Assembly (NCBI GenBank): GCA_963734895.1 | Contig: CAVTIN010000005.1 | Span: 279 to 64,278, forward strand | DNA from: an uncultured Chloroflexia bacterium | GTDB taxonomy: Bacteria > Chloroflexota > Limnocylindria > Limnocylindrales > CSP1-4 | Reading direction: 5' to 3' | Length of the DNA stretch: 64,000 nt | In this document: positions 387-13,008 of the stretch, piece after piece | How positions within the stretch are numbered: the stretch's first letter is position 1 | Layout of the letters: the number at the start of each line of letters is the position of its first letter | Position numbers and translations under genes: made by a program | The notes under the pieces: generated by a model | The model's database searches: none | The model's input: the letters and a program-made list of their open reading frames with translations, nothing else | What the model was told of the DNA's origin: nothing

Positions 387-822
387 TGTCCCGATTGCGG
401 CTGGGCGATGGTCAAGCGGCGAAATCGTCGGACCGGGGAGACGTTCCTCGGATGCTCTCGGTTCCCGGCGTGCCGTGGAACGCGGCAGATAGATCACTCA
501 CCTCGCGGCCTTCCAGGGGACCGAGCATCCCGCTCCACATCGTGCCGGCACACGGCGAGCCCCGCGTCCCGCTCGAGCACGCATCCGGCTCAGCTCGGGC
601 CATCGAGAACCACGCGGTGCGGGCGACTACGCCGAGCTGATCGTCGCCCGGCTGGTCGGCCGCAGCCTGACACCGGTCCAGGGCCTGTTTGCACAGGTGG
701 CTGGCGTGATCCTGCTCGCGGGCGCCTTCTACTGGTTCCTCGCTTCGGGCACGATGGCGCAGGTCGTAACCTCGATAGTTGGCACCATGCATCCATTCAC
801 CGTCACGCCCTCGCCGTCGTGA
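387..822 (+). pseudogene. Remnant ORF(s): a topoisomerase-type C4 zinc ribbon followed, in another frame, by a hydrophobic tail
   Basis: Frame 0, 387-473: CPDCGWAMVKRRNRRTGETFLGCSRFPAC (CxxC...CxxxxxC). Frame 1, 634-819: ELIVARLVGRSLTPVQGLFAQVAGVILLAGAFYWFLASG..., ending at TGA 820-822, which overlaps the GTG of the next gene. No single intact frame with a start codon joins the two parts. Confidence 0.3.
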
Positions 823-3637
823 GCGCACCCACCCTGACCCCGGCCGCCTTCGCGCAGAAGTGGCGCGGCTCCACCACGACCGAGAAGGCCGCGTCCCAGG
901 AGCACTTCATCGACCTGTGCCGGATGGTGGGGGAGCCCACCCCCAACGAGGCCGATCCCACCGGCGAGCAGTACGCCTTCGAGCGCCGGGTCGAGAAGGC
1001 CGGGGGAGGGGACGGCTTCGCCGACGTCTGGAAGCGCGGCTTCTTCGCCTGGGAGTACAAGGGCCACAAGAAGGACCTGAAGGCCGCGTACCTCCAGCTC
1101 CTCAACTACAAGGACGACCTGGGCAACCCGCCGCTGCTCATCGTCAGCGACCTCGACAGCATCGAGATCCGGACCAACTTCACCGGCCTCAGCCCGGTCC
1201 TCACGACGATCACGCTCGACGACCTGGCGGCCGACGATCCCTCAACAGCGCTCCAGACGCTGCGCGACGTGTTCACCGCGCCCGAGGAGCTTCGGCCCAG
1301 GCTCCGGCCCGCCCAGATCACCGAGAAGGCCGCCGGCCACTTCGCCGAGATCGCGCAGAGCCTTCGCGAGCGGGGCCACGACCCGGACAGGGTCGCGCAC
1401 TTCCTGGACCGGATCCTGTTCTGCCTGTTCGCCGAGGACGCCGGGCTGCTGCCCAAGGGCATCTTCATGCGCCTCAGCGAGGCCTCGAGGGGCCGCAGCG
1501 ACGTGTTCAGCAACGCCCTGGGCGAGCTGTTCGCGAAGATGGCCAACGACGGCGGCCTGTTCGGGACCGAGGAGATCGACTGGTTCAACGGCGGCCTGTT
1601 CGACACCGGCGAGGTCCTGCCGCTCACCGGCTCCGAGATCTCGACCCTGCTCGAGGTCAGCCGGCTCAACTGGGCGCTCATCGAGCCCGCGATCTTCGGC
1701 ACCCTGTTCGAGCGCGGCCTCGACCCCGACCAGCGCGCCCAGCTGGGCGCCCACTACACGGACCGCGACGCCATCTGGAAGCTCGTCGAGCCCGTGATCC
1801 TGCGCCCGCTGCGCCGCGAGTTCGTGGCGATGCAGACGCGGGTGACCGAGCTCCTGCTGTCCGGCCGCAAGGTGACCAAGGCGACGCCGCGCGACCAGGA
1901 CCCCAACGCCGTGTTCGAGGACTTCCTCACCCGCCTGCGCGGCGTGCGCGTGCTCGACCCCGCGTGCGGCAGCGGCAACTTCCTGATCGTGAGCCTGTGG
2001 GCGCTCAAGGACCTCGAGTTCGAGGCCATCAACTGGGGCTCGCTCGTGCTGCGCCGGCCGATGCAGGTGCCGCAGATCGGCCCCGAGGCGGTCCTGGGCA
2101 TCGAGATCAACGCCTACGCCGCCGAGCTCGCGCGGGTGACCGTCTGGATCGGCGAGATCCAGTGGATGATCCGCCACGGCCTGGGCTACCGCCGCGACCC
2201 GATCCTGAAGTCCCTCGACCACATCGAGAACCGCGACGCGCTCCTGGACCTCTCCGACCCCGCGAACCCGAAGGAGGCGGAGTGGCCCGAGGCCGAGTTC
2301 ATCGTCGGCAACCCGCCGTTCCTGGGCGGCAAGCTCCTGCGGCGCGGCCTCGGCGACGACTACGTCGACGCGCTGTTCGCGGTGTTCGACGGCCGCGTGC
2401 CGCGCGAGAGCCGACTTCGTCGTCCTACTGGCACGAGAAGGCGCGGGCGCAGATCGAGCGCGGAGCGGACGACGCGGGCCGGCCTGCTGGCGACGCAGGC
2501 GATCCGCGGCGGCGCCAACCGACGGGTCCTGGAGCGGATCAAGGCAGTCCGGCGACATCTTCTTCGCCCGCTCGGACGATCCGTGGATCCTCGCCGGCGC
2601 GAACGTCCACATCAGCTTCGTCGGCCAGGACGACGGCACCGAACGACGACCGCGAACTTGATGGCCAGCCGACGTCGACGATCAACGCGAACCTGACGTC
2701 GGGCGTCGACCTGACGGCGGCCCGCCGGCTGCCCGAGAACGCTGGGCATCGCCTTCATGGGCGACGTCGAAGGGCGGCCCGTTCGACATCGACGCCGAGA
2801 CTGGCGCGCGCAGACTGCTCGCGCAGCCGAACCCAGACGGTCGATCGAACGCGCGACGTCGTCCGCCCCTGGGTCAACGGCCAGGACATCACGCGGCGCC
2901 CGCGCGGCATGTGGATCATCGACTTCGGCGTCGACATGCCGCAGCGACGAGGCCGCGCTCTACGAGGCGCCGTTCGAGTACGTCCGCGCAGCACGTCAAG
3001 CCCGATCGCGATCAGGAATCGCCGCGACCGCCTACGCGGAACGACTGGTGGCTGCATGCGAAGCCGCGGCCAGGAATGCGCGCGGCGCTCGCGGGCCTGC
3101 AGCGCTACATCGCCACGCCCGACGACCTCAAGCACCGGCTCTTCGTCTGGCTCCGATGCCGAGACGCTCGCCGACAGCGCCCTCGTCGTCGTTCGCCGCG
3201 CGACGACGACTACACCTTCGGCATCCTGCACTCGCGCGTCCACGAGGTCTGGGCCCGCGCCATGGGCACGCAGCTCCGCGAGGTCGAGTCCGGCTTCCGC
3301 TACACGCCCACGACCTGCTTCGAGACCTTCCCGTTCCCGCGACCCCACACCCGAGCAGCGCGCCAGGGTAGGGGAGGCCGCCCGCCGCCTCGTCGAGCTC
3401 CGCGACGGCTGGCTCAACCCGCCCGACCTCGCCCCCGCCGACCTCGAGAAGCGCACCCTCACCAACCTCTACAACCAGCGCCCCACCTGGCTCGCCAACG
3501 CCCATGAGGAGCTGGATCGCCGGGTGATTGACGCCTATGGCTGGGACGACACACTGAGCCAAGACGACATCTTGAAACGACTTCTGGACGCGAATGCAGC
3601 GGCACTAGGAGTCACCCTTGATCGCGGCACGCCATGA
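819..3637 (+). pseudogene. MmeI-family type IIL restriction-modification enzyme (N-terminal D...EYK nuclease, N6-adenine methyltransferase, target-recognition/C-terminal region); 3' third heavily frameshifted
   Basis: One clean frame covers 819-2405, with FADVWKRGFFAWEYKG (about 1020-1060), LDPACGSGNFL (about 1953-1985) and GNPPFLGG (2310-2321). From about 2405 to 3360, family-like peptides hop between all three frames: ADFVV / YWHEKARAQIERG / RAGLLATQAIRGGANRRVLERIKA / GDIFFARSDDPWILAGANVHISFVGQDDG / RELDGQPTSTINANLTSG / GPFDIDAE / RDVVRPWVNGQDITRRPRGMWIIDFGVDMP / EAALYEAPFEYVR / HVKPDRDQ / WWLHAKPRPGM..YIATP..KHRLFVWL / DAETLADSALVV / DDDYTFGILHSRVHEVWA. The last frame ends ...LTNLYNQRPTWLANAHEELDRRVIDAYGW... 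with a stop at 3635-3637. Confidence 0.8.
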
Positions 3638-3669
3638 ACCGTTTCATTGGGATGGAGAGCGAGTAGCAA

Positions 3670-4830
3670 ATGTCGGAATCAGAAGACGCCATCGACCCGG
3701 CAGTGGGCTCCGATGACGATCCTGCCGGGATCTCGGAGGACCCTGCCACCTACATCACGGATGCAGAAGCGGCTGACCTCATTGAGGCCGAGCCCGTCGC
3801 AGCGGCGGTCAGCTACTCGGGTCAGGACTTCGATGTCGCTGGTTTGGTGCGCCGTCTCCGCTCCGAGGACATCTTGATTCCTACATTCGGCCACAGGGAC
3901 GAGCGTATTTCGTCGGCCGGGTTCCAGAGGTCATTCGTGTGGACGCGACCGCAGATGGACCGCTTCATTGAGTCCCTCCTGCTCGGCTACCCAGTTCCAG
4001 GGATCTTCCTCGTTCGGCAAGGCGATCGACGTTACCTCGTGCTCGACGGTCAGCAGCGGCTGAGGACGTTGCGGTACTACATGGACGGCGTTCACGAAGG
4101 GAAGGAATTCGCGCTCCAGAACGTTGCGACTCAATTCAAAGGTCTCACATACAAGTCCTTGCCAGAGGACATGCGGCGCCTCCTCGACGACACGTTCTTC
4201 CAGGCCACGATCGTCGTAACTGACGGCACCGCTGAGTCTCTCGAGTCGATCTACCGCGTCTTCGAGCGAGTCAATGCCGGCGGAACCCAGCTCACTCCCC
4301 ATGAGATCCGAGTCGCGTTGTTCGCCGGCCCACTCATCGACTACCTCGAGGAACTGAACACCGACGCCGCCTGGCGGTTCCTGTACGGGAAGAAATCGCC
4401 GCGACTCCGCGACCAGGAACTGGTCCTCCGGATTCTTGCTCTGCTTGACTCTGCGGCAGAGTACCGGCGGCCACTAAAGAGTTTCCTCAATGACTTCGCG
4501 TCCACAAGGCGGTATCTCGCCGGCATTGACAAGGAACTAACGACTGGGCAGTTCCGGTTGTCATCATGGTTGCTCGCGGAGGCGGGCGGCCGTGAGGCGA
4601 TCCGACCCGGAGGCCAGCAACTGAACTCCGCGCTGACTGAGGCCGTCTTCGTCGGACTGATGCGTCGCCTGCGGACGAGCATCAATATTGAGCCCGCGGA
4701 AGTGGCTGCTGCACTCGCAGTTATGGCAGGGAGCGACGAACTACTTCTCGTCACCAGCCGCGCAACAGCTGACGAGGAGAGCGTGAAGAAGCGCCTCGAG
4801 ATCACCACCTCCGCCTTTCAGGGGGAGTAG
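3670..4830 (+). CDS. DUF262 (ParB/Srx-like, GmrSD N-terminal type) domain protein without a fused nuclease domain
   Basis: Intact 386-aa ORF with GGAGAG upstream. Motifs: FQRSFVW (3922-3942), DGQQRLRTL (4045-), RVFERVNAGGTQLTPHEIR. It has an acidic N-terminal tail and a helical C-terminal half with no H-N-H/DUF1524 motif that I can see. GC is lower than in neighbouring genes. Confidence 0.85.
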   Translation: MSESEDAIDPAVGSDDDPAGISEDPATYITDAEAADLIEAEPVAAAVSYSGQDFDVAGLVRRLRSEDILIPTFGHRDERISSAGFQRSFVWTRPQMDRFIESLLLGYPVPGIFLVRQGDRRYLVLDGQQRLRTLRYYMDGVHEGKEFALQNVATQFKGLTYKSLPEDMRRLLDDTFFQATIVVTDGTAESLESIYRVFERVNAGGTQLTPHEIRVALFAGPLIDYLEELNTDAAWRFLYGKKSPRLRDQELVLRILALLDSAAEYRRPLKSFLNDFASTRRYLAGIDKELTTGQFRLSSWLLAEAGGREAIRPGGQQLNSALTEAVFVGLMRRLRTSINIEPAEVAAALAVMAGSDELLLVTSRATADEESVKKRLEITTSAFQGE

Positions 4831-4833
4831 CGC

Positions 4834-5313
4834 ATGTGGCAGGGGGCTTGGCCATCCCTCACCATTGTGCAGCTCCGAGACTCCCTTGACGCTGTCGTGG
4901 ACCTCGTAGACCGTCCGGCGGCGGGTCAAACAGACGATGTCACTCGTGCACTCGCTCGTTTCCTAGTCGTGCGATCCTGCGGCTTCCTCGAGCAGGTGTC
5001 GGAGGAAGCCTGCCGCTGTTACATCCGAAGCAAGTCATACGCTGCCGTGCCGGCATATGCCTCCAGCTGGCTCGGATGCGGCGCCAACCCGACACCGGAG
5101 AACCTGCTGAAGCTCGTGCGGCGCTTCGACGGTCAGTGGGCAGACGCACTCGAGCAGTTCTTGAAGAACAACGACGAACTCTTCTGGCGCGAGATCGCCC
5201 TCCTCGTGGATCGCCGCAACAAGGTCGCTCATGGACTAGGCGAAGGAACTGGCGCTGCGCGTGCCGTCACGCTCGCCGGCCACTCCAGGGCGGTGGCTGA
5301 TTGGTTAGCGTAA
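4834..5313 (+). CDS. HEPN-superfamily protein (resembles the HEPN family that commonly follows DUF262 genes); predicted RNase
   Basis: Intact 159-aa ORF starting 3 nt after the DUF262 stop, with GGGGGAG upstream. The all-helical sequence ends in the Rx4H motif RNKVAH (5215-5232, R128/H133), followed by G. It shares the low GC of the upstream gene. Confidence 0.7.
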   Translation: MWQGAWPSLTIVQLRDSLDAVVDLVDRPAAGQTDDVTRALARFLVVRSCGFLEQVSEEACRCYIRSKSYAAVPAYASSWLGCGANPTPENLLKLVRRFDGQWADALEQFLKNNDELFWREIALLVDRRNKVAHGLGEGTGAARAVTLAGHSRAVADWLA

Positions 5314-5480
5314 CTCAATTCGATCCCAGATAGGCGACATAACTCACCTTATCGGAAGTGCCACACCCCGCTCAGGACGCCCTGCGCGCCGTTTGAGCTC
5401 CTGGCCCGTCACCGGCCTCTGTGGCCGGCTGCGAGTCGATCCGACCAGACGCGCCTAACGGTCGCCGGGAGCGGGCCGCG

Positions 5481-6008
5481 TCAGCAGTCGAACGCAAACC
5501 AGCACAGGTGATTGCGTAGACGCTGGTCGTCGAGCACGAGTTCCCGGATCTCCTGGGGCAGCTGGGCGCGCTGCCACTGGCACTCCAGGCGACCGGCTTC
5601 TGCGCGCTCATCTTCATACGCCGCCGATCGCACCGCCCTGATCGCGTAGGCCGCGGAGCCGAGCTCATGGGCCGCCACATGGCCCACCGCGGCGGCCTGG
5701 CCGGCCGCGTATGCGGCGTATCGCGCGGCGCCGCTGAGGTCCCTCGCGGCGGCATTTGCATGGCCGGCCGCCGTCCGAGCCTCGGCCCACGTGACCTCAC
5801 CTCGTGCCCAGGCACGCCCGAGATCGAGCGCCCGACGTGGACGGTCGTCCTTTGGCCGTGCCTCCTCGAAGTGGTGCAGCACGTGGCCCGCGCATGCAGC
5901 TGCCCACAGCGCGAGGAGGCGATGATCGTCGTCCTGGAGGGTCCCGCCTCGACGGACGGTGATGAACCGAGGATCCCGGACCTTGGGGAGGATCACGGAT
6001 TGCCCCAT
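5481..6008 (-). CDS. Alanine-rich helical protein; resembles proteins annotated as 'putative immunity protein (Imm-5-like)'
   Basis: ATG at 6008 gives 175 aa: MGQSVILPKVRDPRFITVRRGG...HRLLALWAAACAGHVLHHFEEARPKDDRPRRALDLGRAWARGE...AAYAAGQAAAVGHVAAHELGSAAYAIRA...LPQEIRELVLDDQRLRN. The family call is from memory only. The longer start at 6191 adds non-protein-like sequence. Confidence 0.45.
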   Translation of the reverse strand: MGQSVILPKVRDPRFITVRRGGTLQDDDHRLLALWAAACAGHVLHHFEEARPKDDRPRRALDLGRAWARGEVTWAEARTAAGHANAAARDLSGAARYAAYAAGQAAAVGHVAAHELGSAAYAIRAVRSAAYEDERAEAGRLECQWQRAQLPQEIRELVLDDQRLRNHLCWFAFDC

Positions 6009-6313
6009 CGACAGAGCGCGCACGGAAACGATGAAGGCCGGCAAGACGGGGCCATCGCAGCGCGGGCCTGTCACCCAGCCGACATTGCCGGGCGCAACGA
6101 AACGCCCGAAGGAACCCTCCGGCCCGTCTCCGTCCCCGCTGATGCAAGCACCTGCGGCTTCTTCGCCGTTCCTTCTGGCCCCTTCGGGCAAACCGAATAC
6201 TACGGGACGCCCTCGGGCGCCACAACGGGCTTATCCACGAGTTCGCCGGATCGAGGGCGATGGGCGGCAGGTTGTCCACAACCCGTCCACGAACTCGCGG
6301 TTCGCACGGTCCC

Positions 6314-6913
6314 CTACTCCGCGGTCTGGAGCTCCAGCGGCCAGGTCGGGTCTCCCTGGAAGGCGGCGGGCACGCCAGTGTCGTCGAGGTCCACGGTCAT
6401 GTCGGGGCCGCCGTCGGCGGCGACCAGCCGCCAGCGCCGCTCACCCACCCGCGCGACCCTCCAGGTGGCGGGCCGGACCTGGAGCTGTCGGCGGACCTCG
6501 ACGGCCGGCACCGTATCTCCCTCCCCTACCCCGACCCGGCCCTCCAGCCAGGAGGCTGCGGCCGCCGCCGTGATCGGCAATTCACCGACCACCAGCACGT
6601 GATCCGGCGACCAGGGCAGGTCGACATGCTCGATCCCGGCCGGACGCACCACGTTCCCGTGAAGGCGGAGCCCGTCGTCGGAGGGATGGAGCGTGAGCAG
6701 GGCGTCCGCGCCCGCCAGCTCCAGTCGGGTCGGTCGCCCGCCGGCGTCGACCTCCAGCAGCAGCGCGAGGGCGAATCGGCCGTCAGGTCCCACGCTGATG
6801 GACCGCCATCGCCGGCCGCGACGGCCCTCCGCGAGGACCCAGGTCACGCTGGAGCCGTCATCCAGGCGTGCGGCCCCTGCGACCCGGACGGCCGGCGCCG
6901 CTTGTCCGGCCAT
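6314..6913 (-). CDS. Hypothetical protein (199 aa) immediately downstream of hflX
   Basis: ATG at 6913 lies 2 nt after the hflX stop. Codon usage is typical, and the sequence ...SSVTWVLAEGRRGRRWRSISVGPDGRF...VDLPWSPDHVLVVGELPITAAAA...WRLVAADGGPDMTVDLDDTGVP... looks beta-rich and globular. I could not make a family assignment. Confidence 0.55.
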   Translation of the reverse strand: MAGQAAPAVRVAGAARLDDGSSVTWVLAEGRRGRRWRSISVGPDGRFALALLLEVDAGGRPTRLELAGADALLTLHPSDDGLRLHGNVVRPAGIEHVDLPWSPDHVLVVGELPITAAAAASWLEGRVGVGEGDTVPAVEVRRQLQVRPATWRVARVGERRWRLVAADGGPDMTVDLDDTGVPAAFQGDPTWPLELQTAE

Positions 6914-8244: not shown

Positions 8245-8335
8245 ACCGGCTTGCCGGTCCGATCCCCCGTTCGCCTAACCTCGGTAGTCCTTCCGGCGTG
8301 TGTCGCGTGGATGCACCACGCTCGATGCTTGGTGC

Positions 8336-10274
8336 ATGCCCCTCGCTGACCTTCTCCACGACGCATTCGGCTGGCTTCGCGCTCCCGCGCCTGGCCCCGC
8401 CCTGCCCGAGCCCGAGACCGCGCTCCGGCGATCCGTGATCCGCGGGATCGCGATCGTCGCGCTCGTCGCGAGCGCCCTCTACCTCACCTGGCGCACCACG
8501 TCGACGCTGGACCTCGGCGTGTGGTGGGCGTCGGTTCCCCTGCTGGTCCTCGAGATCCACGCCGCGTTCGGGCTCGCGCTGTTCGCGTTCTCACTGTGGG
8601 ACGTTGATCGCCGCCCGGCGCATCGCGACGTTGCCTCGACCCGGCTCCGGATCGCCGTGCTGGTGCCGACCTACAACGAGGGCATCGAGATCCTGCTCCC
8701 GACCATCGCGGCCGCCAAGGCGATGCGGCTGCGCCACGAGACCTGGGTCCTCGATGACGGCACACGACCCGAGGTGGAGCGGCTCGCCCGCTCGCTCGGA
8801 GTCCGGTATCTCACTCGTCCGGAGCACACGCACGCGAAGGCCGGCAACCTCAATCACGCACTCACCGTGATCGACGCGGACCTGATCGCCGTTCTGGATG
8901 CCGACCACGTCGCCGACCGCAAGCTGCTCGTGCGGACGGTCGGGTACTTCGACGACCCGCAGGTCGCCCTGGTGCAGACGCCGCAGGAGTTCTACAACCA
9001 CGATTCGTTCGAGCACGACGCGGTCGCCGGCGACGGCGAGCGGTTCCACGAGCAGGCGCTGTTCTACCGGATGCTGCAGCCGGGCAAGAACCGATGGGGC
9101 GGCGCGTTCTGGTGCGGCACCGGCGCGCTCGTCCGGGTCGCGGCGCTGCGTGATGTCGGCGGGGTGGCCACCGACACGATCACCGAGGACATCCACACCA
9201 CGATCCGGCTCCACCGGCACGGCTGGAAGACCGTGTACCACAACGAGGTCCTTGCGCGCGGCCTGGCCGCCGGTGATGCCGACACGTACCAGCTGCAGCG
9301 CCTGCGCTGGGGCACCGGCGCGATGCAGGTCCTGCGCCGCGAGAACCCGCTCTGGGTCTCCGGCCTGACGCTGCCGCAGCGCCTGTCGTACGCCGCCACG
9401 CTGCTCGGCTGGTTCGACGCCTGGCGGACGCTCGCCTTCGCCTTCTTGCCGATGGTGGTCGTGCTGACCGGCGTCGTCCCGATCCGGGCCGACCTGCGCA
9501 TCTTCGCCACCGCGTTCGGGGTCACCTTCCTGCTCCAGCAGCTCGCACTGCTCGCCCTGAGCCGGGGCTCACACCGACCCGTGCTGTCGATCGTGTTCGA
9601 GCTCGTCCGGATGACATCGAACCTGCGCGCGACACTGACCCTGGTGACCCGTCGCCGGCCCGCGTTCGCGGTGACCCCCAAGGGCCGGCTGGGCGACGGC
9701 CGAACCCGGGTGCGCGTGCCGCTCCCGCTCCGTGTGCTGCTGGTGGCTTCGTTCCTGTCGGCGGCCTGGTTCGCCCTGACGCTGCTCGGTCGTACGTTCA
9801 TCACCTACGCGGAGCCGGGCGCGATGATCGCCGCCTTCGGCTGGCTGCTGTTCAACGTCGCTCTGGTGTGCCTGGCGATCGTGCGCATCCGGTCCCTGAA
9901 GTACGCGCCCGAGCGGCGGGCCAGCGTCCGCTTCGACGTCGAGCTGCCGGGGTTGCTGGGCGATTTTGCCGCCGAGGCGCGTGACGTGTCGGCGGCCGGC
10001 GCACGGGTCGTGGCCGGAACGGAGATCGCCCCGGGATCGAAGGTCAAGCTGGTGCTTGCGACGCCGGGTGGGCCGCTGGCCCTGCGGGGCACCGTCCGCT
10101 CCGTCCGCCGCGATCCGCGGGGTGGACATCGTCCACGGCCTGGAGTTCCTGCCGGGCCAGAACCGGGCACGCGCCCGGCTCGCGCTGTTCCTGTTCGAGC
10201 AACAGACACGCCCCAGGGTGGACCGGACGCCAGTCGCGACCGCGATCCCGGAGCTGGTGCCGACCCCCGCCTGA
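8336..10274 (+). CDS. Family-2 glycosyltransferase (cellulose-synthase-like, multi-pass membrane) with C-terminal PilZ domain; one frame break inside the PilZ domain
   Basis: Motifs: VLVPTYNE, LDADH, TEDIHTT, QLQRLRWGTGA (QxxRW); TM segments on both sides. PilZ motifs: RRASVR and DVSAAG. After ...GTVRSVRRD (frame 2), the PilZ-like continuation GVDIVHGLEFLPGQNRARARLALFLFEQ... is in frame 0 and stops at 10272-10274. The break is near 10112-10122. The ATG at 8336 was chosen over the GTG at 8300. Confidence 0.8.
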
Positions 10275-10304
10275 GCGCCGCGGCGCGAAGCTCGAGGCGG
10301 GCTT

Positions 10305-10340
10305 CCGACGGGCTCAGCCCTGCGCCGACGGGCTCAGCCC
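10305..10340. repeat. 20-bp-period tandem duplication at the 3' end of miaA
   Basis: CCGACGGGCTCAGCCC occurs at 10305-10320 and again at 10325-10340. The second copy contains the miaA stop codon (10334-10336). Confidence 0.8.
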
Positions 10341-11344
10341 GGCGCCTGCTCCAGGAACTTGCCGACCGCCGGCAGCACCGTGTCCGCCGGATCCCCGGTC
10401 GCGTCCACCACCGTGAGCGCGGGCTCCCTGCGGAACCATGTCCGCTGGCGTTTGGCGAACTGGACGTTGCGCCGGGCGTCGCGAGCGAGCGCCTCCTCCA
10501 GCGTGCACTCGCCATCGAGCAGCGCCCAGCTCTCGCGATAGCCGATCGCCGAGAATGCGGGCAGCTCCGGGTCGAAACGTTCGCGCAGGTGTCTCGCCTC
10601 CTCGACCAGGCCGGCCTCGAACTGTGCGCGGGCGCGATGCAGCATCCGGCGCTGGTGCTCCGCGGGTTCCACGACCAGCTGCACCCCGAGGACCGGCGCC
10701 GGGTATCCGACGCGCGCCGGCAACGGGGCGTCGCCGCGCAGAGTCGCGATCTCCATGGCACGGACCACGCGGCGTGGGTTCCGGAGGTCGATGTGCGCAG
10801 CGAGCGAAGGCGCCCTGGCCGTGAGCCGCACCACCACGGCCTCGAGCCCGTCGGACGCCAGCGTTGCCTCGATCTCCTTCCGGACGTCCGGATCCGACGG
10901 CAGGGCGTCCGTGTCGATCCCCGCGAACACGGCGCGCAGCCAGAACCCGGTGCCGCCGGCGAGGACCCCCACCCCGCCCCGCTCGCCGAGCGTGCGCAGC
11001 GCAGCCAGTGCGTGGGCGCGGAAGTCGACGATCGTGAACGGGCAATCGGGATCCACGAGATCGAGGCCGTGGTGGACGACCCGGCCGCGCTCCTCGGGGG
11101 TTGCCTTCGCGGTGCCGATGTCGAGGCCCCGGTACACCTGGCGCGAGTCCGCCGACACGATCTCTGCGGGAATGCCGCGGGCCATCAGCTGCTCGGCCAC
11201 CTCGATGGCGAGCCCGGTCTTGCCCGTGGCGGTCGCACCGCCGATGACGACGAGCGGCGGCAGGTCCCCCGGCCCTCCGCTCGCTGGCGGCGGCAGGTCC
11301 CCCGGCCCTCCCCGCCCGGGCGCGGGATCGCCGGCCGAGGGCAT
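10334..11344 (-). CDS. miaA: tRNA dimethylallyltransferase
   Basis: P-loop GGATATGKTG, SADSRQVYRGLDIGTAKATPEER, typical length. The N-terminal extension contains an in-frame duplication. Confidence 0.95.
   Translation of the reverse strand: MPSAGDPAPGRGGPGDLPPPASGGPGDLPPLVVIGGATATGKTGLAIEVAEQLMARGIPAEIVSADSRQVYRGLDIGTAKATPEERGRVVHHGLDLVDPDCPFTIVDFRAHALAALRTLGERGGVGVLAGGTGFWLRAVFAGIDTDALPSDPDVRKEIEATLASDGLEAVVVRLTARAPSLAAHIDLRNPRRVVRAMEIATLRGDAPLPARVGYPAPVLGVQLVVEPAEHQRRMLHRARAQFEAGLVEEARHLRERFDPELPAFSAIGYRESWALLDGECTLEEALARDARRNVQFAKRQRTWFRREPALTVVDATGDPADTVLPAVGKFLEQAPG
11256..11311. repeat. 33-bp-period in-frame tandem duplication in the 5' end of miaA
   Basis: GGCGGCAGGTCCCCCGGCCCTCC occurs at 11256-11278 and at 11289-11311. 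It encodes GGPGDLPP twice (GGPGDLPPPAS GGPGDLPPLVV). Confidence 0.85.
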
Positions 11345-11349
11345 CGGGC

Positions 11350-13008
11350 TCAGGCCAGTCGTCCGCGGAGCGCGTACGGCCCGGCGTGGTCCACGGCGAC
11401 CGTGACCAGCTCTCCCACGAGCGAGGCGGCGCCCGCCACGTGGACCAGCTTGTTCTCGCGTGATCGACCGGCCAGGTGAACGACGCCATCCGGGAGGTGA
11501 GCGAACGCGTCGCGCGACTCGGCGGTGCCGGTGTCGGCGGCGTCCTCGTCGTCATGGTCGTGGCGCCGGGGCGGGATGATCGTGTCCACCAGCACCTCGG
11601 TCGTGCGCCCCAGCCAACCGCGGTTCCGCTCGTGCCCGATGCGCTCCTGGACCGCCAGCAGCTCGACCAGACGGCGGCGCTTCTCCTCGGCGGGCACGTC
11701 GTCCACGAGCCGCGTCGCAGGTGTGCCGGGCCGCTCGCTGTAGGCCGCCGCGAACACCTGGTCGTACTCGACGGTCTCGAGCAGCCGCAGCGTTGCTGCG
11801 TACTCCTCGTCCGTCTCGCCGCAGAAGCCGACGATGACGTCCGTGGACAGCGCGATCCCGGGGATCGCCTCGCGGATCCGGCCAAGCCGTTCGAGGTAGT
11901 GCTCGATGGTGTACTGGCGGCCCATCCGGCGCAGCATCGCGTCGCTGCCGGACTGGACCGGGAGGTGCAGCGCCTCGCACACCGACGGGCAGTCGCGCAT
12001 GGCCTCGATGAGTCGATCCGACAGGTCCCAGGGATGCGAGGTCACGAACCGGAGGCGAGGGATCGCCGGACCGTCGCCGACCGCCGCCACGCCGTCGAGT
12101 GCGCGGATCAGCTCCGCGAGATCGGGCCGCGCCTCGCGGTCCTGGTGCCGTCCGACTGTGCGAGCTGTGACGACGTGGGCAAACCGCGGCTCGGCCGGCA
12201 GGTCGTGGCCGTAGCTGTTGACGTTCTGTCCCAGGAGCGTGACCTCGCGGTAGCCAGCCGATGCCAGCGCCCGGGCCTCGTCGACGATCTCGTCGAACGG
12301 TCGGCTGCGCTCGGGGCCCCGGCTGAACGGGACGATGCAGTAGGTGCACGTCTTGTCACAGCCGTAGATGATCGGCAGCCAGGCGCTGATCGTTGAACTC
12401 CGGCTCACGGCGCTCCCCGCGATCGCGTCCGCGCGGGCCCGCACCAGGTGCGTCGCATCGGAGACGACGGCGCGGTTGACCACCGTGGTCGCGGCGGTCA
12501 TCGCCAGCGCACCGACCGGAGCCTGGGCGGAGGCCAGCCCGAGCCGGTCGACGAGCTCGGGCTCCTCGTCCGGGCGCAGGAACAGGTCGATTGCCGGGTA
12601 CCGGCGGGTGAGGGCGTCGCGGTTGTTCTCGCGGACGGAGCAGCCGGTCATCACCACGCGAAGGCCGGGGTTGGCGGCCTTGAGCCGGTTGAGCTGGCCC
12701 TGACGGCCGATGACCTTCGCCTCAGCCGCCTCACGGATCGCGCAGGTGTTGATGACCACGAGGTCGGCCGTCTCCAGCGCGGGGGATTCCGCGCACCCGG
12801 CGGCCAGCAGCCGACCGGCCATCTCCTCGGAGTCGCTCTTGTTCATCTGGCAGCCGAGCGTCCAGACGAAGAACGATGGGAGCGAGCGGGGCTCGGGGCG
12901 GAACTCGCCCAGCCGGTCGTCGTCGGGGTCGAGCGGGCTGCGCGGCCCGTCCGCGCCGACCGAGGGCGGGAGGATCTCGAGCACGGGCAGCCGTCGGGTG
13001 GTCGTCAT
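11350..13008 (-). CDS. miaB: tRNA-i6A37 methylthiotransferase (radical SAM)
   Basis: Motifs: TLGCQMNKSDSE, VINTCAIRE, radical-SAM CDKTCTYC, TRAM-like C-terminus. ATG at 13008 (MTTTRRLPVLEI...) is preferred to the ORF-track start at 13089. Confidence 0.93.
   Translation of the reverse strand: MTTTRRLPVLEILPPSVGADGPRSPLDPDDDRLGEFRPEPRSLPSFFVWTLGCQMNKSDSEEMAGRLLAAGCAESPALETADLVVINTCAIREAAEAKVIGRQGQLNRLKAANPGLRVVMTGCSVRENNRDALTRRYPAIDLFLRPDEEPELVDRLGLASAQAPVGALAMTAATTVVNRAVVSDATHLVRARADAIAGSAVSRSSTISAWLPIIYGCDKTCTYCIVPFSRGPERSRPFDEIVDEARALASAGYREVTLLGQNVNSYGHDLPAEPRFAHVVTARTVGRHQDREARPDLAELIRALDGVAAVGDGPAIPRLRFVTSHPWDLSDRLIEAMRDCPSVCEALHLPVQSGSDAMLRRMGRQYTIEHYLERLGRIREAIPGIALSTDVIVGFCGETDEEYAATLRLLETVEYDQVFAAAYSERPGTPATRLVDDVPAEEKRRRLVELLAVQERIGHERNRGWLGRTTEVLVDTIIPPRRHDHDDEDAADTGTAESRDAFAHLPDGVVHLAGRSRENKLVHVAGAASLVGELVTVAVDHAGPYALRGRLA

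Follow-up and report, generated by a model that had tools for sequence, protein, structure and literature searches.

Two adjacent plus-strand genes are located at 3670-5313 in DNA from an uncultured Chloroflexia bacterium, within a window (the whole stretch that was analyzed) of 64,000 nucleotides (nt). Gene 1 (3670-4830) encodes a protein of 386 amino acids (aa), gene 2 (4834-5313) encodes a protein of 159 aa, and 3 nt separate them. A Shine-Dalgarno-like sequence, GGAGAG, is found at 3654-3659 on the plus strand, 10 nt 5' of the ATG of gene 1. Another, GGGGGAG, is found for gene 2 at 4821-4827 on the same strand, within the end of gene 1, and this position, read directly in the sequence, marks translational coupling of gene 2. 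The coordinates and both sites agree with an earlier interpretation made from the letters alone (hereafter, the sequence-only reading), which had described two coupled open reading frames (ORFs), each with its own site. Neither a sigma-70-like promoter nor a plus-strand terminator was found at the locus. As described below, gene 1 encodes a DUF262 (ParB/Srx-like) protein and gene 2 encodes a HEPN protein. The pair is a diverged member of the DUF262-HEPN family of the PD-T4-2 type, an architecture that is already known, and not a new kind of system.

Pfam, PADLOC and AlphaFold2 analyses indicate that gene 1 encodes an NsnA-like or PD-T4-2_A-like protein, a putative nucleoside triphosphate (NTP)-dependent DNA sensor. 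It matches PF03235 (GmrSD_N/DUF262) at 1.8e-26, and besides this Pfam gave just a sub-threshold match to DeaD_dimer. DUF1524 was not found in gene 1 or gene 2 by the Pfam scan, which supports the earlier claim that gene 1 lacks the DUF1524/His-Me nuclease. Two PADLOC models match gene 1 almost from end to end: NsnA of the Menshen system (3.1e-50; 38-379 of 385 profile positions) and PD-T4-2_A (1.2e-36; 57-362 of 363). Gene 1 is also weakly similar to REase_II and HEC-05/06 of PADLOC. NCBIfam gave nothing informative for either protein. The DUF262 motifs FQRSFVW, DGQQR and FERVNAGG, which the sequence-only reading had pointed out, show little or no variation among 59 homologues; the invariant residues are F85-Q-R87, F89-V-W91, D126-G127, Q129-R130 and E199-R200-x-N202. 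The DGQQR motif (D126-R130; 4045-4059, plus strand) is the nucleotide-binding and hydrolysis motif of DUF262 proteins, a role published for BrxU, SspE and HEC-06, and defence by related DUF262 proteins requires it. In gene 1, D126, G127, Q129 and R130 of this motif are invariant and Q128 is conserved in at least 90% of these homologues.

The AlphaFold2 model of gene 1 has a mean predicted local distance difference test score (pLDDT) of 84. It starts with an acidic, disordered stretch (residues 1-29), continues with a ParB-like alpha/beta domain and ends in a helical domain of the DNA-binding (ParBDB) type. The top PDB matches of the model are ParB-N, Noc, SspE, PadC, KorB and sulfiredoxin (Srx), and the sequence profile of gene 1 reached BrxU (7p9k) at 3.4e-8. 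Residues 1-45 (3670-3800) form an acidic tail that is predicted to be disordered and contains a short conserved helix (L29, E33, L37, A40). An E. coli plasmid homologue of gene 1 also has an acidic N-terminus. This tail might bind a partner or act in autoinhibition.

Gene 2 encodes a small all-helical HEPN protein of the RiboL-PSP type, as assigned by Pfam and AlphaFold2, that is a putative ribonuclease (RNase) effector and is truncated at its C-terminus. It matches PF18735 (HEPN_RiboL-PSP) with 31.5 bits, above the curated Pfam cut-off of 28.4, so that the earlier assignment to HEPN holds at the level of profiles. The HEPN Rx4H catalytic motif, R128-N-K-V-A-H133, is located at 5215-5232 on the plus strand. 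G50, E53, R128, H133 and G134 are invariant across 105 family members, and R128, H133 and G134 are conserved in at least 90% of 147 more distant cluster representatives. The sequence-only reading was right about the Rx4H motif, but it had placed it at the end of the protein; RNKVAHG corresponds to residues 128-134 and is internal. The AlphaFold2 model of gene 2 is a six-helix bundle with a pLDDT of 89 and a predicted template modelling score of 0.85. Its PDB matches with the highest probability and the best template modelling (TM) scores are all HEPN proteins: 5yep_C (SO_3166), 7bxo (HepT), 1ylm (YutE), 4nqf, 7ae6, HI0074 and 2hsb. For SO_3166, the probability is 0.92 and the TM scores are 0.52/0.61. 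It is thus the Pfam score, together with the invariant motif and the consistent fold, that identifies gene 2 as a HEPN protein. The family is large, as the gene 2 profile collected at least 1,339 clusters (50% identity) at E<=1e-3 and 617 at E<=1e-10. The PADLOC model matched by most gene 2 relatives is PD-T4-2_B; 46 of the 105 family members match it weakly (best E 1.8e-5), as do 7 of the 147 more distant representatives.

The two families occur together. We scanned the loci of gene 1 relatives using one genome per species, which gave 49 loci, mostly from Actinomycetota. Of these loci, 45 had enough downstream DNA, and in 44 of them gene 1 is immediately followed, on its own strand, by an ORF of the gene 2 family, in agreement with the co-occurrence expected from the sequence-only reading. 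Gaps between the two genes in these loci are mostly -8 to +8 nt, and this suggests that the two genes are translationally coupled. The exception to this adjacency is Corynebacterium phocae (L036, 4888-8638), in which a 650-nt gap is followed by a gene for a 663-aa DNA methyltransferase-like protein; either the HEPN gene was lost or the partner is a different one. Most gene 1 homologues are chromosomal, and the pair is also present on Kocuria and Arthrobacter plasmids and in one IMG/VR provirus. A third conserved gene was not found: among 121 flanking proteins from 35 loci, each of 142 Pfam families was present in four proteins at most. The flanks include a few transposases, an integrase or HsdM. 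Because the neighbours are heterogeneous and there is no third conserved gene, the pair is an autonomous two-gene cassette. A word-indexed search with gene 1 gave at least 1,975 proteins at E<=1e-5, and an exact-match scan of metagenome contigs for the junction between gene 1 and gene 2 gave no match.

Similar pairs are found in enterobacteria. Many plasmids of E. coli and Salmonella, IncX1 plasmids among them, carry a DUF262 gene and a PF18735 HEPN gene. In the E. coli IncX1 plasmid NZ_CP102858.1 (L051), the pair is located at 3004-4644 and encodes a DUF262 protein of 365 aa and a HEPN protein of 180 aa. The IncX1 pair lies directly after the replication initiation gene and begins inside the end of that gene. 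The IncX1 DUF262 protein is the nearest enterobacterial homologue of gene 1 that we found (31% identity, 1e-48). The NsnA model gives it a better score than PD-T4-2_A does; its partner matches PF18735 at 2.9e-13 and is missed by PD-T4-2_B. The profile scores ruled out that the IncX1 pair is PD-T4-2 proper, and on the plasmid it may serve in defence or stability. DUF262 pairs are also present in an e14-like prophage and a P2-like phage of E. coli, with sizes that differ from those of PD-T4-2. In the P2-like Peduovirus P24B2 (NC_049387.1; L056, 140-2015), a DUF262-like protein is followed by a 239-aa HEPN protein, assigned to the MAE_28990 family (7.6e-18). A second family of HEPN proteins is thereby associated with a ParB-like protein, and this pair adjoins a DNA methyltransferase.

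PD-T4-2 is a two-gene system of E. coli ECOR65, recorded as 'DUF262, HEPN' with two ORFs over 1,540 nt (Vassallo et al. 2022, PMC9519451). HHpred assigned PD-T4-2A to DUF262 (99.7%) and PD-T4-2B to PF18735 (97.8%) (PMC9519451). PD-T4-2 protects K-12 from T4, and its deletion from ECOR65 restores plaquing of T4 (PMC9519451). It acts on T-even phages, whose DNA is modified. The association had been noted before, as a census of HEPN proteins in 2013 tabulated 'Ribo L-PSP-HEPN ... operon with ParB' and described the RiboL-PSP HEPN as a distant relative of AbiD/AbiF (PMC3710099). Reviews place PD-T4-2 among the DUF262 systems without DUF1524. We made the comparison with PD-T4-2 through its PADLOC profiles. 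Both PD-T4-2 and the pair in the window are two-gene operons in which A precedes B in the same direction and DUF1524 is lacking. In both, A is a DUF262 protein of ~365-385 aa and B is a stand-alone RiboL-PSP HEPN protein (PF18735) of ~160-170 aa. They differ in that their sequences are distant, gene 2 falls below the PD-T4-2_B model, the host is a high-GC soil bacterium and gene 2 has a C-terminal frameshift. Thus, the A component and the architecture of PD-T4-2 are present in the window, and the B component is present at the level of the Pfam family. A defence role is the best reading of the pair, and we consider it likely that gene 1 and gene 2 make up a self-contained anti-phage module of the PD-T4-2 type. 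The sequence-only reading had called the module uncharacterised and without a shown phenotype. This is no longer tenable because PD-T4-2 was validated against T4 in 2022, and the pair shares its architecture with this recognised system, so that one of the outcomes which the sequence-only reading had named as refuting its claim largely applies.

Other known systems share parts of this architecture. In Menshen (NsnA-NsnB-NsnC; Millman 2022, Li et al. 2025), NsnA has the same architecture as gene 1, a ParB-DUF262 domain followed by a helical C-terminal domain, and the proposed logic, a DNA sensor with an RNase effector, is also alike. In contrast to Menshen, the effector here is a HEPN protein that is paired directly with the sensor. 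Neither the NsnB ATP-binding cassette (ABC) ATPase (AAA_15/DUF3696) nor the NsnC inPIN-nuclease was found here, where three proteins were scanned with PADLOC, or in the homologous loci. The locus is not Menshen because NsnB and NsnC are lacking, and gene 1 is followed by the 159-aa HEPN gene and then by an Imm5-like gene on the opposite strand. GmrSD, BrxU and SspE also have a DUF262 ParB/Srx-like NTPase domain with DGQQR, but in these proteins a fused DUF1524 His-Me nuclease cuts or nicks DNA, whereas here an RNase-type HEPN protein is encoded in trans. As DUF1524 is lacking, the pair does not belong to this group. HEPN-MNT toxins (HepT/SO_3166) and HEPN proteins of abortive infection (AbiD/AbiF) share the helical HEPN fold and Rx4H with gene 2 and are its best structural matches. 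They differ from the pair, which has a ParB-like partner and neither an MNT protein nor an RNA antitoxin; an Rfam search of 3000-6500 gave no match and hence no match to an RNA antitoxin. The pair is not HEPN-MNT because the partner is a DUF262 protein and Pfam found an NTP_transf domain in neither protein.

How might such a module work? Gene 1 would most likely be the sensor and bind invading, possibly modified, phage DNA in a nucleotide-dependent manner. We favor this assignment because DGQQR drives NTP hydrolysis in BrxU, SspE and HEC-06, and in the NsnA model DNA is sensed by the ParB-DUF262 domain and the C-terminal domain. Gene 2 would most likely dimerise and thereby form the Rx4H RNase site, and it would be kept in an inactive state up to the point at which gene 1 reports an infection. 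Activated gene 2 would then probably cleave RNA and halt phage growth, resulting in an arrest like that in abortive infection. This logic, its trigger, its RNA target and any remaining activity of this copy are inferences. We hold this specific sensor-to-RNase mechanism tentatively, at slightly less than even chances. For the PD-T4-2-type module and the mechanism taken jointly, a compromise between the two assessments gives moderate confidence. It is also conceivable, though we lean against it, that the mainly actinobacterial clade, whose HEPN partner has diverged too far for the PD-T4-2_B model, is a distinct subtype in which a nucleotide-dependent ParB/Srx-like DNA sensor directly licenses a HEPN RNase without an ATPase transducer. 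If this is true, the subtype would be a two-protein switch of minimal design, 'DNA sensed, RNA cleaved'.

The cassette differs from its surroundings in composition. The GC content is 61.0% in gene 1, 62.9% in gene 2 and 60.9% in the segment 3500-5363, as compared with 70.5% in the whole window and 71.3% in hflX. GC at third codon positions is 71-74% in the gene pair, in comparison with 93% in hflX. The segment 3500-5363 is a low-GC islet that contains the 3' end of an MmeI-like gene, gene 1 and gene 2, and the lowest-GC stretch of 1.86 kb in the window begins at ~3600. The sequence-only reading had already noticed the low GC content and considered it compatible with a foreign origin. Both points stand, but the values of 52-58% that it had counted by hand are too low, as the two genes have 61-63%. 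A search for boundaries of mobile elements found no meaningful repeats flanking the locus and no tRNA. The composition suggests that the pair is a small, foreign-looking islet next to hflX that was most likely acquired horizontally by a high-GC bacterium. A related copy is found in CAVYXU010000057.1 (loci L001/L002), a contig that carries the label of a metagenome-assembled genome of an uncultured Chloroflexia bacterium. Positions 3500-5363 of the window are ~99.8% identical to positions 1320-3162 of L001, with no substitution from 3545 to ~5040, and the differences are mostly insertions and deletions (indels). The flanks are ~90% identical (67-99%), and the alignment of the flank on the hflX side, likewise ~90% identical, has 16 gap openings in 5.2 kb. 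The tract of high identity takes in the last ~140 nt of the MmeI-like gene and ends abruptly at 5363. Because the cassette is so much more similar than the flanks, its exchange is much more recent than the divergence of the genomes. The alignment thus points to recent recombination or transfer of the cassette among related strains.

Several results weigh against the assignment of the pair to a working PD-T4-2-type module. Gene 1 is scored higher by the NsnA model than by PD-T4-2_A in PADLOC, and gene 2 of the window has no PADLOC match to PD-T4-2_B at E<=0.1. The PDB matches of the gene 1 model are weak (E 0.03-0.6; probability 0.7-0.94 for the best), and the gene 2 model has no PDB match at E<1e-3, which is the reason why the HEPN assignment leans on the Pfam score, motif and fold. 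Between gene 2 and the IncX1 HEPN protein, BLASTP, the hidden Markov model of the gene 2 family and hhalign found nothing significant beyond the common PF18735. Since the DUF262 partners of these two pairs are detectably similar and the HEPN partners are not, the HEPN partner evolves much faster than the DUF262 partner. Defence genes are not enriched among the 121 flanking proteins of the 35 loci, and no clear location in defence islands emerged. This clade would probably escape PADLOC or DefenseFinder, since the A component alone is recognised. We found no published mechanism for any DUF262-HEPN member, PD-T4-2 included, in keeping with the statement of the sequence-only reading on this point, and the Menshen paper (Li et al. 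2025) terms PD-T4-2 'largely uncharacterized'. The remaining points concern the integrity of the copies. An AG insertion at 5307-5308, seen in comparison with L001, turns the end of gene 2 from ...DWFVTQFDPR* into ...DWLA*. The copy in the relative is frameshifted in each gene: gene 1 has lost 1 nt, and 1 nt has been inserted within RNKVAH, at positions that match 4436 and 5224 of the window. The module may be inactive here, or these indels may be assembly errors.

The most serious rival explanation is that the cassette is a decaying, non-functional remnant that was recently acquired and has already been inactivated like its MmeI-like neighbour. This neighbour (810-3637, plus strand) lies outside the module, belongs to the MmeI family of type IIL restriction-modification (R-M) genes, and matches MmeI_N, MmeI_hel, MmeI_Mtase and MmeI_C of Pfam, as expected from the sequence-only reading. 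It has at least seven changes of reading phase at 2340-3353, where the relative has an open ORF of 478 aa, and these changes show it to be a genuine pseudogene here. In gene 2, the 2-nt insertion removes a tail, W-F-[IV]-x-R-[FL]-D-P-R, that is conserved in at least 99 of the 105 homologues. Removal of AG restores ...ADWFVTQFDPR*, the reading of L001, and the remnant of the tail, FVTQFDPR, follows out of frame up to a stop at 5331-5333 (feature 5307-5333, plus strand). Thus, the earlier statement that both genes are intact is true of gene 1 but not of gene 2. Damage to both copies fits a remnant. However, gene 1 is full length and keeps every invariant residue, and gene 2 keeps its entire HEPN core and the Rx4H motif. 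The absence of substitutions over ~1.5 kb between the two copies would have left little time for decay. The indels themselves may be errors of long-read assembly, as a housekeeping gene in the window has a similar shift. This is a bcsA-like glycosyltransferase/PilZ ORF (8300-11479) that has a 1-nt insertion at ~10126 relative to the same relative; its frame shifts at residue 597 of 645, and the ORF is extended to 1,059 aa. Either the housekeeping gene is truly frameshifted or the assembly contains indel errors, and the latter possibility bears on how the truncation of gene 2 is read. Taken together, we consider a remnant unlikely, although it is the strongest of the rival explanations.

The pair could also be mainly a toxin-antitoxin (TA)-like addiction or stabilisation module, in which the HEPN RNase is a toxin that the DUF262 protein neutralises and which maintains plasmids or islands rather than senses phages. 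HEPN proteins are the toxins of HEPN-MNT, and the best structural matches of gene 2 are the toxins HepT and SO_3166. Homologous pairs are carried on plasmids, those on the IncX1 plasmids of E. coli and Salmonella overlapping the replication initiation gene, and the two genes are translationally coupled, which would also suit a TA module. However, the upstream partner is a ParB-like NTPase of 380 aa with conserved catalytic motifs, and not an MNT protein or a small antitoxin. PD-T4-2 confers phage defence, and most homologues are chromosomal. TA and abortive-infection roles are, moreover, compatible with each other. A TA-like module as the main role is thus quite unlikely.

It is improbable that the roles are reversed, with gene 1 as the effector, a ParB-like deoxyribonuclease (DNase) that acts on phage DNA in a type IV-like manner, and the HEPN protein as its partner in regulation or nucleotide binding. 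In the context of R-M systems, domains with the ParB fold have been regarded as DNases (PMC3710099). Gene 1 is weakly homologous to REase_II and HEC-05/06 of PADLOC and to the N-terminal domains of BrxU and SspE, which are type IV enzymes, and the T-even phages targeted by PD-T4-2 have modified DNA. GmrSD, BrxU and SspE, however, cut by means of DUF1524, which is lacking here, and the Rx4H motif, invariant in more than 250 relatives, speaks for a HEPN protein that is catalytic. Least probable is an accessory role of the pair for the neighbouring R-M gene of the MmeI type, for example a modification-dependent backup as BrxU is for BREX: gene 1 starts 32 nt downstream of this gene on the same strand and the exchanged segment includes its 3' end, but it is a pseudogene here, the neighbours of the pair are heterogeneous, and, among the genome loci of gene 1 homologues, that of the close relative alone has an MmeI-like gene upstream, the other 47 having none. 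A functional link of the pair to the MmeI-like gene was rejected because no MmeI-like gene is found beside the other homologues.

With the PD-T4-2-type module as the preferred reading, the locus extends a validated yet mechanistically unsolved architecture, DUF262 with a RiboL-PSP HEPN, into high-GC soil bacteria. The strict operon and the absence of a third conserved gene support the idea that the two proteins are sufficient. The family also offers diverse orthologues for structural and biochemical work on how a ParB-like NTPase controls an RNase. Its interest comes mainly from its unsolved mechanism and from profiles that probably miss this clade.

Some further features were observed around the cassette. 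The relative shows a reciprocal pattern, in which the 3' half of the MmeI-like gene is open and gene 1 and gene 2 are frameshifted. Upstream of the MmeI-like gene, positions 381-494 encode a topoisomerase-type C4 zinc-ribbon (PF01396, 2e-11) in a garbled frame, and this is probably another gene fragment. Downstream of gene 2, the minus strand carries an Imm5_like putative immunity gene at 5481-6191 (PF21805, 1.2e-35). The region 3' of gene 2 is a variable spot, as the region 5363-6080 of the window, with the Imm5-like gene, corresponds to 3162-4653 of L001, which carries a chromate transporter.

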